A DNA stretch of 39,827 bases, from the UHGV virus genome UHGV-2125590. One strand, written 5' to 3'. A program made the position numbers and the translations under genes. Positions 193-34,433 of this stretch are shown in pieces (position 1 is the first letter of the stretch; each line of letters starts with the position of its first letter). This stretch comes from a virus. The notes under the pieces were generated by a model that saw only the letters and a list, made by a program, of their open reading frames with translations, did not search any database and was not told where the DNA came from.

Positions 193-1443
193 GTGCTTAC
201 CGATACAAAATTAAAAAACCTCAAGCCGCAGGACAAACTGTACAAGGTCTCCGATCGTGACGGGCTGTATGTAGCTGTGCTTACGTCAGGCACGGTCTCG
301 TTTCGCTATGACTACCGTATCAACGGTCGCCGCGAAACACTGGTAATCGGGCAGTATGGGCGTGACGGTATCAGCCTGGCAGAAGCGCGAGAAGAACTGA
401 TTGCTGCAAAGAAGCTGCTTAAAGCAGGCCAGTCACCGGCTGCGGCTAAACGTGACGGTATCAAAAAGATTCGTGGTGCCGAGACGTTTGCGGTACATAC
501 CGACAGTTATATGAAACACGTCATCCTGGCTGACAGTACCCGCGCAATGAAACAGGCGGTGATCGACCGTGACATACTTCCGGTTCTTGGCAATAAAATG
601 ATGGCTGAAATTACCACATCGATGGTTCGTGATTTGTGTGACCGGATTGTCGAACGCGGTGGCCGGGCAACAGCAGTGCAGGCCAGGGAGATCATCAGCA
701 GCGTATACCGTCACGCCAATGACCGTGGTCATGGTTTGTTTAATCCTGCGGCTGACATAAAACCTTCGTCTATCGCCATATTTAAACCACGAGAGCGAAC
801 ACTGACACCAGAAGAAATTGGCCTGTTCTTCCGCACGCTGGATGCCATTGGTGCTATGGGCACTATGAAAATGGCTTTAAAACTGGTGCTTATCACTATG
901 GTTCGTAAGGGCGAATTCACCAATGCAACGTGGGATGAAATAGATTTTAAAAAATGGACATGGACAATTCCTCCAGACCGCATGAAGGGAAGCCGGGCGC
1001 ACGTTATTTACCTGCCTAAACAGGCACAGGATATATTGGTCGGGTTGCAGATGTGCGCTGGTGGAAGTGAATATCTGGTTCCTGGTCGTTACAATTTCCG
1101 GAAGCCATTATCTAATGCCGCGCTGAACTCTCTGATCGACAGAACGGTGAAAATAATAAATGAAGATGGTGAGCATATTCAGGACTTCACTGTACATGAT
1201 ATGCGCCGTACAGCCAGTACGTTGTTGCATGAGGCTGGTTATCCTTCAGACTGGATTGAAAAGGCTCTGGCACATGAGCAGAAAGGTGTGCGCGCCGTAT
1301 ATAACAAAGCGGAATACGCCAGACAGCGCGCCTACATGTTGCAGCAGTGGGCCGATATGATTGATTCATGGATTGACGGGGAGCATACGGATCTGATTCC
1401 GTTCTCCCCGTCGAAGTTTGAGAAGTGGATGGCGGGGGAATAA
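193..1443 (+). CDS. int: tyrosine recombinase / phage integrase, P4/CP4-57-like with N-terminal arm-binding domain
   Basis: 416 aa; GTG start at 193 after in-frame stop; N-terminus LTDTKLKNLKP...DGLY typical of P4-family integrases; C-terminal HDMRRT...Y catalytic region. Confidence 0.9.
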   Translation: MLTDTKLKNLKPQDKLYKVSDRDGLYVAVLTSGTVSFRYDYRINGRRETLVIGQYGRDGISLAEAREELIAAKKLLKAGQSPAAAKRDGIKKIRGAETFAVHTDSYMKHVILADSTRAMKQAVIDRDILPVLGNKMMAEITTSMVRDLCDRIVERGGRATAVQAREIISSVYRHANDRGHGLFNPAADIKPSSIAIFKPRERTLTPEEIGLFFRTLDAIGAMGTMKMALKLVLITMVRKGEFTNATWDEIDFKKWTWTIPPDRMKGSRAHVIYLPKQAQDILVGLQMCAGGSEYLVPGRYNFRKPLSNAALNSLIDRTVKIINEDGEHIQDFTVHDMRRTASTLLHEAGYPSDWIEKALAHEQKGVRAVYNKAEYARQRAYMLQQWADMIDSWIDGEHTDLIPFSPSKFEKWMAGE

Positions 1444-5388: not shown

Positions 5389-5465
5389 TTACCGTTGAGG
5401 TAATAATTATGCTTATTTGGTTTGGTGTCAATAGATATGAGTTAAAAAAATTACCCGTAAGGTAA
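5389..5465. promoter_or_regulatory. two copies of the 15-bp palindrome TTACC-N5-GGTAA in the leftward-operon promoter region (OL-like)
   Basis: Perfect sites at 5389-5403 and 5451-5465 between the repressor gene end and the leftward operon. Confidence 0.5.
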
Positions 5466-5522: not shown

Positions 5523-6107
5523 TTATTGTTTGCTTTTTTCGTTCTGGTTGATGACAAATTCAATGTAACTTTCGATCTTTGCTTTCTCGGTTTCGGGTAA
5601 CAATGCGTAGCGTGAGCGGTCATAGTTGATAGTCGCAGGGTCGTGCGGGTGAATCAGTAGTTCATATCCGTGACGCCCGAATGCGGATGCAACATTCTCC
5701 AGGGTGGAAATGGAAACGCTGACCTCATTGTTTAACAGGCGGCTGATTGTCACCTGGGCGACGCCGGATGCGCGGTGAAGTTTTCCCTGTGTTGAAAGGT
5801 CGCGGCTTTCGCTCATCCAGCGTTCCAGGTTGTGAGCCGCCAGCTGACCTATATCGCTCGGGCCGACAGGCTGAAAACCCTCCTGAGAAAGCGAACGATC
5901 AATATCAAGCCAGTTACGGGGTTTATTGGCGGCAGCTTCAATTTTTCGTGCAACCTGGTCGCCGATAACCTTCTTGCCAAGAGCCCAGCGGTTTACCAGA
6001 TTTGCCTGAGTTCCAAGTTTTTCTGCCATCCGCGTCTGAACACCATTGAATTCACGGTCGATCAAGTCGTTGAGATTTTGCCTGCGGACGTCCTGGATAC
6101 TTTTCAT
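5523..6107 (-). CDS. CI-like prophage repressor with two HTH regions and no S24 peptidase domain
   Basis: 194 aa; N-terminal HTH (QTRMAEKLGTQANLVNRW) and second XRE-like HTH (ASGVAQVTISRLLNNE); divergent from Cro-like gene; weak RBS, consistent with a PRM-like leaderless arrangement. Confidence 0.65.
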   Translation of the reverse strand: MKSIQDVRRQNLNDLIDREFNGVQTRMAEKLGTQANLVNRWALGKKVIGDQVARKIEAAANKPRNWLDIDRSLSQEGFQPVGPSDIGQLAAHNLERWMSESRDLSTQGKLHRASGVAQVTISRLLNNEVSVSISTLENVASAFGRHGYELLIHPHDPATINYDRSRYALLPETEKAKIESYIEFVINQNEKSKQ

Positions 6108-6162: not shown

Positions 6163-6225
6163 TTACCCAACAGGTAAATGCACCTCATAGGTAACTATCC
6201 TTGATTTTTGTTACCTTATGGGTGA
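6163..6225. promoter_or_regulatory. tripartite operator-like cluster (OR-like) between the divergent repressor and Cro-like genes
   Basis: Perfect TTACC-CAACA-GGTAA at 6163-6177; imperfect copies at 6180-6194 (GCACC...GGTAA) and 6211-6225 (TTACC...GGTGA). Confidence 0.55.
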
Positions 6226-6547: not shown

Positions 6548-6562
6548 GTACCTCAAAGGTAA
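6548..6562. promoter_or_regulatory. imperfect palindrome copy (GTACC-TCAAA-GGTAA)
   Basis: One mismatch in left arm; between Cro-like gene and next gene. Confidence 0.35.
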
Positions 6563-8449: not shown

Positions 8450-8526
8450 TTACCTGATGGGTAATAAAATATTCTAAAATCTATTGATTTTGTGTCTTAT
8501 GTGGTTTTTAATTACCTCAGAGGTAA
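8450..8526. promoter_or_regulatory. two perfect TTACC-N5-GGTAA palindromes upstream of the DUF1064 gene
   Basis: Sites at 8450-8464 and 8512-8526; the second ends 3 nt before ATG 8530; TATGTGGTT motif at 8498-8506 between them. Confidence 0.5.
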
Positions 8527-11669: not shown

Positions 11670-11684
11670 TTACCACAACGGTAA
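11670..11684. promoter_or_regulatory. perfect TTACC-N5-GGTAA palindrome upstream of terS
   Basis: ATTACC-ACAAC-GGTAAC; imperfect second copy at 11686-11700. Confidence 0.5.
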
Positions 11685-14433: not shown

Positions 14434-14510
14434 TGGCGTGGCATGCAGGATTCGAACCTGCGACCAACCGCTTAGAAGGCGGTTGCTCTGTCCAACTGAG
14501 CTAATGCCAC
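14434..14510 (-). tRNA. tRNA-Arg (anticodon UCU)
   Basis: 77-nt cloverleaf derived by hand: acceptor GTGGCAT/ATGCCAC, D-arm GCTC/GAGC, anticodon stem ACCGC/GCGGT with loop CT-TCT-AA, T-arm GCAGG-TTCGAAT-CCTGC, encoded CCA. Confidence 0.85.
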
Positions 14511-14832: not shown

Positions 14833-14847
14833 TTACCTGAAAGGTAA
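14833..14847. promoter_or_regulatory. perfect TTACC-N5-GGTAA palindrome upstream of the portal operon
   Basis: TTACC-TGAAA-GGTAAT; TATGTGGTT at 14891-14899 downstream. Confidence 0.5.
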
Positions 14848-32056: not shown

Positions 32057-32071
32057 TTACCCTTGAGGTAA
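32057..32071. promoter_or_regulatory. perfect TTACC-N5-GGTAA palindrome upstream of the 210-aa moron gene
   Basis: TTACC-CTTGA-GGTAAT. Confidence 0.5.
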
Positions 32072-32141: not shown

Positions 32142-32834
32142 TCAGAAGAACCCTGCTTTGTCGTTGATGTACTCCGCGTGAGTCTGGATATCACGCAGGC
32201 ATTTGCTCACACCGACGATGTAGCAGAACATGGTGGTCAGCTCCGCTGCAGCGCCCGATACATCATGCCCGTCTTCCTGTAACTGGTTCAGCAAATTCAT
32301 CAGCAGTGAGTTCTCCGTCAGGCCGAGAACACCAGACGGCGAATGAATCAGGCTGCGGTAGCCGGGCTTCAGCGGGGCACTGTAGGTTTTGTTCTCTATC
32401 TTCATCGCCTGCATTACTGCTGACGCCGTGGCGTTGGCTACCTGGTCGGCAACCATCTTTATGCGTTCTTCCTGCGGGAGCGAGTTTTTAATGTAACTTC
32501 CTGTGCGGCGGATCTGAGGAAGAACCTCACCTGTAACCCATTCAAGAAATCTGAATGCTCTCGTTCCCTCTGTCATTGCCTCTTTGCAACGCAGAATAAG
32601 GATGTAGAGACCTGATTCTGAAACGATGGATAGTTCTTGTATTCCACCAGGGGTCTGTATTGAATACAGCCCCTTTTTGTTCCAGCCTTTTTTATCAAGT
32701 TTTCTCGCTTGTGTAACATCAATATTCAAAGCATTGCACACATCTTTGGTGACAAACCAAGGTTCTCCGTCAATCATGAACATACGGATCTGGCAGGATG
32801 ACTCAAAGGAAAAGATGGAAGGTTTGGTATTCAT
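32142..32834 (-). CDS. Bro-N domain protein (antirepressor-like)
   Basis: ATG 32834 (AGGTGA RBS); N-terminal IRMFMIDGEPWFVTKDVCNALNI...GLYILI...LPQIRRTG is the Bro-N signature. Confidence 0.7.
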   Translation of the reverse strand: MNTKPSIFSFESSCQIRMFMIDGEPWFVTKDVCNALNIDVTQARKLDKKGWNKKGLYSIQTPGGIQELSIVSESGLYILILRCKEAMTEGTRAFRFLEWVTGEVLPQIRRTGSYIKNSLPQEERIKMVADQVANATASAVMQAMKIENKTYSAPLKPGYRSLIHSPSGVLGLTENSLLMNLLNQLQEDGHDVSGAAAELTTMFCYIVGVSKCLRDIQTHAEYINDKAGFF

Positions 32835-33101
32835 GGCGATCACCTTTGTAGTTAGGTTAATCACCACCGCTGAGACCAATCAGATGGTGGTGAACTGTGC
32901 AGAGTTGGTCTTACCGGCTACAAAGGAACCCGGCGCACCTTTCGGTGCCCCCACACAGCCCACCATAGAATAGGTGCGCTTTACACATAAAAAAACCGCT
33001 TATGCGGCATATGTGCCTCTGTAGTAATCCGGGAGACCAATCCCGGCACTGGATTTTGCCAGTGCCCGATTACTATGGCACAAGAGGAGTGCGATGTAAA
33101 T

Positions 33102-33209
33102 TTACCTCAAAGGTAATGATAAACGCGAAGAAATATTAAAATCAACCGTATTTGGTTGATTGGGTTTAACGCTTGATCACCTGAAAGCAAGATATTACCT
33201 TTAAGGTAA
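33102..33209. promoter_or_regulatory. two perfect TTACC-N5-GGTAA palindromes in the divergent promoter region
   Basis: 33102-33116 and 33195-33209, between the Bro-N gene (minus) and the 242-aa gene (plus). Confidence 0.5.
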
Positions 33210-33229: not shown

Positions 33230-33958
33230 ATGGAAGTTTTCTGGATAGTTGTTGGTGTGGTTGCGGTGATTATTTACGTTATCAACCAGAACAAGACTAA
33301 GATCTCTGATCGTACGGTCGTTAATCATAACAAAACGATAAAGACCGAAGATGGGGAGATAACGATTAATCGTACACAGGTGATAGAACACACCTCTACT
33401 CAGTTTCAAAAAACTGGAGGTAATGCGCCTAATATTTCCGCACCTCCTGCTTATGATAGTGCGGTAATCCAGACATATTATAAACAGCAGGAGTTAGCAA
33501 AAGAGAGGCAACTGATTCAGCCAAAGCCGTTTACAGCTGAGCTTCCACCTGGAGTGTCAACGCGTCCGGCATATCATGGAAGATTCCCTGGTGGTGACAT
33601 ATCGTCTCAGTCATCTAAAAAAGCACCTCAGGCAGTATCAGAGCCAGCAAGAATACCTTCTGTATCGCCGCCAAAAGAAGAATCAGCTAACAGAGTTTCA
33701 AGTGGTAGCAAGCAGTGCTTGCGATGCAGAATAAACCTTCCATATGAAAAATTCAGGAAATCGTCAAAAAATCCAGATGGATTGACTAAGTGGTGTGCAA
33801 GGTGTCTCGATGGCCCAAAGAATACACGCCATATGAAGTGGTGCCCAATTTGTAATGTCCGCAGAAAACGAACCAGCTTTTACCCTAATAATCAAAATGC
33901 GGACGGCTTAATGGCATGGTGCAAAACGTGCTGGGATGAGCACAAAGCGAAACGATAG
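33230..33958 (+). CDS. membrane-anchored protein with tandem C-terminal zinc-ribbon-like repeats
   Basis: N-terminal TM helix FWIVVGVVAVIIYVI; two repeats of C-x2-C...DGL-x2-WC-x2-C; GAGGAAAA RBS. Confidence 0.55.
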   Translation: MEVFWIVVGVVAVIIYVINQNKTKISDRTVVNHNKTIKTEDGEITINRTQVIEHTSTQFQKTGGNAPNISAPPAYDSAVIQTYYKQQELAKERQLIQPKPFTAELPPGVSTRPAYHGRFPGGDISSQSSKKAPQAVSEPARIPSVSPPKEESANRVSSGSKQCLRCRINLPYEKFRKSSKNPDGLTKWCARCLDGPKNTRHMKWCPICNVRRKRTSFYPNNQNADGLMAWCKTCWDEHKAKR

Positions 33959-33981
33959 GCCGCTCTTGCGGCCTTTAAATT
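33958..33981. terminator. hairpin terminator between convergent moron genes
   Basis: GGCCGC-TCTT-GCGGCC followed by TTTAAATTT. Confidence 0.4.
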
Positions 33982-34238
33982 TACCGGGTTTGTTTTCGTA
34001 ATTGTTCGGCACAATAGTCGAGATGTGTTTGCAGATCCCGCATAGACATCTGTGAGCTGGTGACGTAGTTAATCAGTGCAGTCAGTTCGGCAAGTGGGCC
34101 ATCGACATTAAATCCATCCTTATCGAGATCCCGGAGTAATTTCATCAAGTGCGATCCCTCCACCAGTGACCTGACGCCTCCCGGCGTGTGAATCCTTTCG
34201 GTAAATCCGTCTTCCAGTGGATAGTGATACTGCTGCAT
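33981..34238 (-). CDS. small protein homologous to the C-terminal domain of the Bro-N protein
   Basis: 85 aa from ATG 34238 (GGAG RBS); aligns by eye to the last ~70 aa of the Bro-N protein (H.P.GV..L.E.S.LM.LL..L..DG..V.G..AELT...NYV......RD.QTH). Confidence 0.45.
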   Translation of the reverse strand: MQQYHYPLEDGFTERIHTPGGVRSLVEGSHLMKLLRDLDKDGFNVDGPLAELTALINYVTSSQMSMRDLQTHLDYCAEQLRKQTR

Positions 34239-34314
34239 CTTATCTTCTCCATGCAATAACTGTATATTTATACAGTAACAAATAATTTGTTTGCTATCCA
34301 GCACGTTTTGCAAA

Positions 34315-34329
34315 TTACCCGAAAGGTAA
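34315..34329. promoter_or_regulatory. perfect TTACC-N5-GGTAA palindrome between the small minus-strand gene and the tailspike gene
   Basis: ATTACC-CGAAA-GGTAAT; TATGTGGTT at 34361-34369. Confidence 0.5.
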
Positions 34330-34433
34330 TATCTATTCGTATTTACAGTCTTTCTATCCATATGTGGTTTTCCAGGTAATAGAATAACCAGATATGCGGC
34401 GCAACGGGTGCTGCGACTATCTGGAGATTTAAC

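Follow-up and report, generated by a model that had tools for sequence, protein, structure and literature searches.

The DNA analysed here, hereafter the window, is the 39,827-nt UHGV virus genome UHGV-2125590, a phiV10/epsilon15-like (Uetakevirus) prophage. Its minus strand encodes a 230-residue Bro-N domain protein (Table 1) that shares 81% identity with an anti-repressor, ORF4, from phage vB_EcoP_ZX5. Overexpression of ZX5 ORF4 resulted in less lysogeny, a drop in prophage titre from 1e9 to 1e6 and a 75% decrease in repressor transcription (PMC9782041), and it is from this relative, tested by overexpression only, that the window protein takes its putative antirepressor role. The comparison revealed no homology of the Bro-N protein to Gifsy-1 AnrP or to P1 Ant/Ant1. 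The start of the gene is most likely ATG 32834 and not TTG 32879.

Upstream of this gene RefSeq annotates nothing between the two flanking genes, leaving a blank of ~230 bp, and ARAGORN found no tRNA or tRNA-like gene in the region, its sole result being the tRNA-Arg(UCU) gene of the prophage (14434-14510, minus strand). The neighbouring plus-strand gene (33230-33958), divergent from the promoter described below, encodes a protein of 242 residues with an N-terminal hydrophobic segment and a cysteine-rich C-terminal part carrying repeated CxxC motifs (weak Stc1 match, E 5e-4). Further along, the minus-strand ORF 33981-34361 lacks a Bro-N domain but is paralogous to the C-terminal part of the Bro-N protein (42% identity over 84 residues, E 6e-20); a shorter version of 85 residues is found in RefSeq in a 99% identical prophage. 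Two tyrosine-integrase genes are located near the window ends (193-1443, plus strand; 38670-39827, minus strand, reaching the last base).

The hairpin-rich region, its promoter and its operator-like palindromes

Three perfect hairpins had been quoted from the stretch between positions 32880 and 33100, and all of them are present exactly (Table 1). The corresponding minus-strand RNA (33075..32820, 256 nt) is predicted to fold at -105.6 kcal/mol, compared with -79.0 +/- 4.6 kcal/mol in dinucleotide shuffles (z = -5.82), none of the 200 shuffles being equally stable. The functional unit extends on the minus strand from ~33116 down to 32834 and passes the left boundary to ~32843, where the site named b2 sits on the Shine-Dalgarno sequence. 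The claim that the stretch contains no credible ORF is essentially right, with the reservation that an ORF of 28 codons (32966..32880), opening at a conserved AUG in the C4 stem, exists, the length of which varies among relatives.

The palindrome-bearing promoter suggested by the first-pass annotation is genuine: the palindrome O1 abuts the -35 box TTTACA (33100..33095), which is followed by a 17-nt spacer and a TG-extended -10 box CATAGT (33077..33072). In every one of the 59 representative loci described below, a -35/-10 pair is found at this same spacing from the 5' end of IsrK. O1 is centred at about -44 relative to the IsrK 5' end, and its position is kept in the Uetakevirus-like subgroup of relatives. 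It matches TTACCTNNNAGGTAA exactly, a motif with 17 sites in the window (two mismatches at most) against 0.88 expected; these TTACC-N5-GGTAA palindromes are almost always intergenic. A triple site separates the gene of a 194-residue HTH repressor (5523-6107, minus strand) from a cro-like gene (6263, plus strand), O2 is just upstream of the gene for the 242-residue protein, and the palindrome at 34315-34329 is at or before the start of ORF 33981-34361. By its sequence, O1 is very probably an operator of the main repressor of the prophage, and the whole set looks like a scattered-operator regulon comparable to that of P1 C1, with sites in the integrase, replication, antirepressor and tailspike regions. 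A repressor bound near -44 might either shut the promoter off or, in the manner of lambda CI at PRM, stimulate it in the lysogen.

Table 1. Elements of the antirepressor leader and operator-like sites (positions are those of the whole window)
Feature	Coordinates	Strand	Basis or remark
Bro-N domain protein, 230 aa, putative antirepressor	32142..32834	minus	Pfam Bro-N, 1.8e-13
b2 CUACAAAGG	32843..32851	minus	overlaps Shine-Dalgarno AAGGUGA, 8 nt before ATG 32834
GGUGGUGA	32861..32868	minus	complementary to C4 3' strand UCACCACC (32893..32886)
a2 (UUGGUCU)	32873..32879	minus	target site 4 nt past the C4 match
C4 antisense RNA, RF01695	32970..32883	minus	78.6 bits against gathering score 45, model 1-87 of 87
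a' (AGACCAA)	32905..32911	minus	single-stranded C4 junction
b' CCUUUGUAG	32918..32926	minus	loop of C4 hairpin 2
Hairpin GGCGCACC-TTTC-GGTGCC	32932-32949		third hairpin quoted earlier, sequence check; C4 hairpin 1
IsrK intrinsic terminator GCCGCAUAAGCGGU + U run	32989..33008	minus	terminator scan
b1 CUACAGAGG	33016..33024	minus	IsrK linker; 9 bp with b', one G-U
Hairpin CCGGGA...TCCCGG	33029-33046		second hairpin quoted earlier, sequence check
a1 (UUGGUCU)	33034..33040	minus	loop of IsrK hairpin 2; identical to a2, complementary to a'
c4-a1b1, RF03163 (a1, b1 targets of C4 antisense RNA)	33078..33026	minus	permissive regional scan; overlaps IsrK 5' half
isrK, RF01394	33065..32989	minus	74.7 bits against gathering score 50, model 1-77 of 77
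Hairpin GGCACTGG-ATTTTG-CCAGTGCC	33045-33066		first hairpin quoted earlier, sequence check
Sigma-70-type promoter	33072..33100	minus	promoter scan; predicted +1 ~33065
O1 operator-like palindrome TTACCTCAAAGGTAA	33102..33116		exact match to TTACCTNNNAGGTAA; reads TTACCTTTGAGGTAA on the minus strand
O2 operator-like palindrome TTACCTTTAAGGTAA	33195..33209		93 bp from O1, before the divergent 242-aa gene (33230+)
TTACC-N5-GGTAA sites	136-150, 5389-5403, 5451-5465, 6163-6225 (three)		pattern scan, two mismatches at most
TTACC-N5-GGTAA sites	6548-6562, 8450-8464, 8512-8526, 11670-11684, 14833-14847		pattern scan, two mismatches at most
TTACC-N5-GGTAA sites	32057-32071, 33102-33116, 33195-33209, 34315-34329		pattern scan, two mismatches at most

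Two RNA families and their conserved pairing sites

A scan of the whole window against Rfam at the curated thresholds gave three matches, and two of these fill the region, both on the minus strand. The first, to isrK (E about 1e-14), comprises hairpin 1, hairpin 2, a linker and an intrinsic terminator, with a promoter-like site at its 5' end and a terminator-like site at its 3' end, as expected for the family. Among relatives, hairpin 1 shows compensatory changes at 4 pairs, and the terminator stem varies in sequence with its pairing preserved. From its position this terminator would act as an attenuator before C4 and the Bro-N gene. The 5' half of the RNA also resembles the family of C4 target sites c4-a1b1, below threshold in the window (39.9 bits against a gathering score of 46.7, E 9.4e-9) and above it in P1 (51 bits) and Gifsy-1 (48.1 bits). 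The second match is to the C4 antisense RNA (E 6.6e-14), the fold of which is a long closing stem around two hairpins; it lies in an antirepressor-operon leader and in the same orientation, with the Bro-N gene directly downstream, which is the genomic context of the C4 family.

The two RNAs and the Bro-N ribosome-binding region are connected by short complementary sites (Table 1). In the window a' is exactly complementary to both a2 and a1 over 7 nt, and b' to b2 over 9 nt. The duplexes are short, with energies of about -8 and -11 kcal/mol, as in P1; these values refer to the sites themselves, since programs for global cofolding or duplex prediction of C4 with its target or with IsrK unfold or ignore the structure of C4. 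The segment GGUGGUGA can form another helix with the 3' strand of C4. This helix of 7-10 bp, which covaries and occurs in 57/59 related loci, places a2 within a loop of ~18 nt containing an inner stem of 3-4 bp (CUGA..UCAG), and in the unprocessed RNA it competes with the closing stem of C4.

The module is widely distributed. Searches with a 441-bp segment matched 485 complete E. coli replicons as well as 225 phage records, among them Stx phages, Gifsy-1, APSE-1, Klebsiella phages and TL-2011b. For comparative analysis, loci were gathered via relatives of the Bro-N protein and with a DNA pattern that fixed the IsrK stems and left the loops free; the resulting 180 segments, 93 of them distinct, were reduced to 59 clusters at 96% identity, a set that, drawn in part from the IsrK-stem pattern, under-samples divergent relatives such as P1. 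In every one of these 59 non-redundant loci, a1 and a2 share one 7-nt core, of which a' is the reverse complement, and the single second copy of the core follows a' in C4 at a distance of 31-36 nt. This identity is kept through 14 different core sequences (e.g. UUGGUCU, UUGGCGU, UUGGAAC, UUGAGAC, GUGGAAA, UUAGCAG), and when cores are swapped between loci they match in only 6 of 2830 pairs. The b sites follow the same rule: pairing of b' has a median of 9 bp with b2 and 8 bp with b1, compared with 5 and 4 bp, respectively, when loci with different loops are swapped, and b2, present as 42 distinct sequences in the 59 loci, typically ends 8-9 nt before the ATG. In the helices of C4, 16 of the 24 consensus pairs have compensatory double changes (52 sequences). 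The module is thus conserved among related prophages with strong covariation, in decisive agreement with the conservation check set for the earlier proposal of a regulatory RNA.

The products of the genes downstream of the module in these relatives are Bro-N, ORF6N, AntA, Rha or Icd-like proteins. The first four of these represent unrelated antirepressor-type genes, which the IsrK/C4 module precedes in, for instance, loci L084, L091, L131 and L199. In the L091 protein an N-terminal AntA domain is joined to a C-terminal domain almost the same as in the window Bro-N protein, a sign that domains have been shuffled while the RNA leader in front stayed constant. In a further subgroup (L105, L112, L119, L121, L123, L169) an insert of ~65 nt containing TATAAT separates the IsrK terminator from C4 and is possibly, judging from this motif, a separate C4 promoter; after the insert these loci have an ORF of 62-65 residues (MATTP...QFIWIIAAVRRD...) positioned like P1 icd. 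Closer to the window, the Bro-N antirepressor genes of phages ZX5 and phiV10 are likewise preceded by both RNAs. The phiV10 record annotates just the IsrK terminator in the corresponding region. The ZX5 record (MW722083.1) has a 37-residue CDS named "ash family protein" (L205 1366-1479) on top of C4 (Rfam C4, L205 1352-1437), which is probably an RNA gene annotated as a protein.

A putative RNA lock on the antirepressor gene

The first-pass annotation had offered a structured 5' leader, an antisense or small RNA, and an attenuator as alternatives. The region appears to be all three at once, because it combines an IsrK-type sRNA, an intrinsic terminator that would serve as attenuator, and a C4-type antisense RNA within the leader, the loops of which are complementary to the Bro-N ribosome-binding region. 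From these sequence elements, their complementarity and covariation, and the homology to P1 and Gifsy-1, we consider it highly probable that the region is an RNA lock of the P1 immI type on the antirepressor gene, and we infer its operation as follows. A single sigma-70 promoter (~33100..33072, minus strand), flanked by operator-like palindromes for the main repressor, would start transcription at ~33065, and most transcripts would end at the intrinsic terminator, giving a 77-nt IsrK-type sRNA. Transcripts reading through would contain the C4-type RNA (32970..32883) and the Bro-N mRNA. The promoter scan found no separate C4 promoter between the IsrK terminator and C4 in the window, so that the supply of C4 would depend on read-through of a good terminator.

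C4 would probably be cut out of the read-through RNA as in P1, the 5' cut falling inside the AUG of the small ORF. In P1 and P7 the 5' end of C4 is made by RNase P. Using the annotated ends of P1 c4, the mature window C4 is predicted at ~32964..32886, its 5' end being placed at 32964 because P1 c4 is annotated from the first G of AU|GG onwards. Through a' and b', C4 would then pair with a2 and b2 on the mRNA and, since b2 covers the Shine-Dalgarno sequence, the start of ribosomes on Bro-N would be blocked and the antirepressor kept off in the lysogen. As IsrK has the same two sites (a1 and b1), it would be a competitor for C4, both in cis, as part of the precursor, and in trans, as the terminated sRNA; repression would thereby be eased and the balance shifted towards prophage induction.

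A more specific version of this scheme is somewhat less likely than not. The short IsrK may be a dedicated decoy for the C4 of its own read-through transcript, the ratio of terminated to read-through RNA setting the switch; the a and b sites, with at least 14 a-types and 42 b2-types in the 59 loci, may serve as a combinatorial address that insulates co-resident prophages or lets them induce one another; and the module may be wired to the main repressor via the operator near -44. This unified decoy reading of IsrK and C4 may never have been stated explicitly before. IsrK and c4 are handled as separate systems in the literature searched (PMC4825925, PMC12197685), in which no explicit link from IsrK to the C4 target sites was found, the texts of Rfam and Wikipedia themselves lying outside this search.

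Among the alternatives, one concerns the step at which C4 acts. It might work mainly on transcription, through premature termination or Rho-dependent polarity as for the P4 CI RNA or P1 icd-ant, and not by a simple block of Bro-N translation. In P1, blocked translation of icd leads to Rho-dependent termination before ant, which counts in favour of this possibility. The Gifsy-1 authors likewise compare IsrK to seqA, the target of the P4 CI RNA, and IsrK supplied in trans raised a transcriptional fusion 8-fold; the translational fusion, however, rose 139-fold (PMC4825925), an effect far exceeding the transcriptional one. Moreover, b2 here lies directly on the Bro-N Shine-Dalgarno sequence with no icd-like ORF between, and our scan found no terminator-like site between C4 and the ATG. 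As the main action of C4 this route is rather unlikely, while as an added effect it is plausible because of the 8-fold response of the Gifsy-1 transcriptional fusion.

Another possibility is that the region works by ORF coupling in the Gifsy-1 style: IsrK would open the structure, the 28-codon ORF would be translated and its ribosomes would switch on Bro-N, the C4 region being mainly a coding leader and not a free antisense RNA. In Gifsy-1, mutation of the orf45 start codons or insertion of a stop lowers IsrK-dependent anrP translation (PMC4825925), the AUG of the small ORF is kept in 57/58 relatives, and in phage ZX5 a 37-residue CDS has been annotated over the C4 region. Yet the conservation of the AUG is accounted for by the 5' stem of C4, and the annotated 5' end of mature P1 c4 lies inside this triplet (AU|GG) and thus destroys the start codon. 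The small ORF differs in length among relatives (3, 8, 14-17 or 26-66 codons, or open into the next gene), and variation in the C4 region tracks RNA pairing (compensatory changes in 16 of 24 pairs), not codons. In the window the ORF stops 46 nt before the Bro-N ATG, a poor geometry for coupling. Variable in length and its 28-codon peptide having no match to a Pfam or NCBIfam family, the small ORF was rejected as the main function of the region, and small-ORF coupling, which may make some contribution, is unlikely to be the core mechanism here.

Alternatively, the leader might act purely in cis, with an attenuator terminator and folds that mask the ribosome-binding site but no diffusible RNA regulator. 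A strong terminator does stand between the promoter and the Bro-N gene, the leader alone is predicted to fold with its Shine-Dalgarno region paired, and relatives retain the alternative helix that joins GGUGGUGA to the C4 3' strand. Such a leader would leave unexplained why a1 and a2 remain identical to each other and complementary to a' through 14 sequence changes, as expected of trans or competitive pairing; furthermore, C4 works in trans in P1/P7 (review PMC12197685) and IsrK does so from a plasmid in Gifsy-1 (PMC4825925). We therefore regard a purely cis-acting leader as quite improbable. Finally, that these are chance GC-rich hairpins in a functionless intergenic spacer, for which nothing speaks except the absent RefSeq annotation, is refuted with near certainty by the fold z of -5.8, the two Rfam matches at E about 1e-14, the occurrence in 485 E. 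coli and 225 phage records, and the covariation.

Relation to known antirepressor control systems

Both RNAs belong to curated Rfam families, with scores above threshold, and are arranged in the architecture of P1 immI and Gifsy-1 isrK; for these reasons we consider that the region is, by its sequence, an already known and conserved phage RNA control module (IsrK plus C4), unannotated here. The closest parallel to the RNA lock is immI of P1/P7. The P1 record annotates Oc4 (a C1 operator), P2c4, P1c4, a1, b1, the 77-nt c4 RNA, a2, b2, icd and ant, and the order of the elements is shared: repressor operator, promoter, a1, b1, a terminator-like hairpin, C4 with a' and b', a2 and b2. The likeness extends to the spacings (a2 3-4 nt after C4, a gap of ~21-22 nt between a2 and b2, b2 8-10 nt before the start codon), to the lengths of the sites (7 nt for a, 8-9 nt for b) and to the fold of C4, an RNA which in P1/P7 acts in trans and sets heteroimmunity (review PMC12197685). 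The systems also differ in several respects. In P1, b2 lies on the ribosome-binding site of the small icd ORF with ant behind it, whereas in the window it lies directly on that of Bro-N; a single promoter was recognised here, in contrast to P1 with its additional constitutive one; the regulated proteins are unrelated; and operator and repressor differ, P1 using C1 and the window an HTH repressor with TTACC-N5-GGTAA sites. With the isrK model the P1 leader scores a weak 35 bits, whereas in the window isrK is strong and c4-a1b1 sub-threshold. Because the spacings agree and the P1 leader matches isrK, albeit weakly, IsrK and the a1/b1 leader of P1 are one and the same element.

The Gifsy-1 prophage of Salmonella provides the second parallel. 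Its Rfam scan shows isrK, c4-a1b1 and C4, in that order, directly upstream of anrP; because of these matches, "orf45" and the stable STnc1160 RNA of Gifsy-1 can be equated with the C4 region. The succession from isrK through C4 to an antirepressor-type gene and the logic of the a and b sites are the same, as is the production from one promoter of a short terminated and a long read-through form, which we infer for the window prophage. Transcription of anrP from the isrK promoter of Gifsy-1 does not lead to its translation (Hershko-Shalev et al. 2016, PMC4825925), IsrK in trans increases anrP translation more than 100-fold (PMC4825925), and both the binding of Hfq to IsrK and its trans activation of downstream-gene translation have been demonstrated (PMC4825925). 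Compensatory pairs (G28-C162 and G31-C159) were found to hold the inactive form together (PMC4825925); by position these are a1:a' pairs. IsrK and STnc1160 are both highly expressed in Gifsy-1 lysogens in all conditions examined (PMC7067206). The Gifsy-1 authors attribute activation to a change of RNA fold together with translation of the small ORF that spans C4, and not to titration of free C4, and constitutive STnc1160 failed to counteract IsrK toxicity in their work (PMC4825925). The two loci differ in their addresses (a = UUGGCGU and b = UCACCG in Gifsy-1), in the downstream protein (ORF6N there, Bro-N here) and in location, adjoining antQ in a lambdoid prophage there and lying between injection genes and tailspike in a Uetakevirus here; the C4 region, moreover, was treated there as an ORF of 45 codons (PMC4825925), as opposed to 28 codons here.

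Two further systems are reminiscent of this arrangement. The P4 CI RNA is also processed from the leader of its own operon and has target copies upstream (seqA) and downstream (seqC), and the Gifsy-1 authors considered seqA a structural homologue of IsrK (PMC4825925); unlike the proposed masking of a ribosome-binding site at an antirepressor gene, it causes premature transcription termination of replication genes (PMC4825925). The immI region of P22 (mnt, arc, ant, sar) is likewise located late in the genome, adjoining the tailspike gene, and an antisense RNA that acts on the ribosome-binding site prevents production of its antirepressor (review PMC12197685). In contrast to C4, which is co-directional and would make short loop contacts, sar comes from the strand opposite to the arc-ant junction; the whole-window Rfam scan gave no match to sar, and the neighbouring ORFs contain no Arc or Mnt domains.

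The significance of the window is thus mainly one of annotation: ~230 bp left blank in RefSeq encode two regulatory RNAs which probably decide whether the prophage antirepressor gets made. The comparison leaves the known mechanism unchanged. What it adds is modest, namely the equivalence of IsrK with the a1/b1 leader and of orf45/STnc1160 with C4, the combinatorial addresses, and the probable main-repressor operator on the module in one phage group. In this light, the Salmonella IsrK locus, P1 c4 and the leaders before antirepressor genes in enterobacterial prophages, phiV10-like and Stx prophages included, are all one module, the address sequences of which differ while the same rule is kept, so that possible cross-talk between co-resident prophages can be predicted in a simple way.
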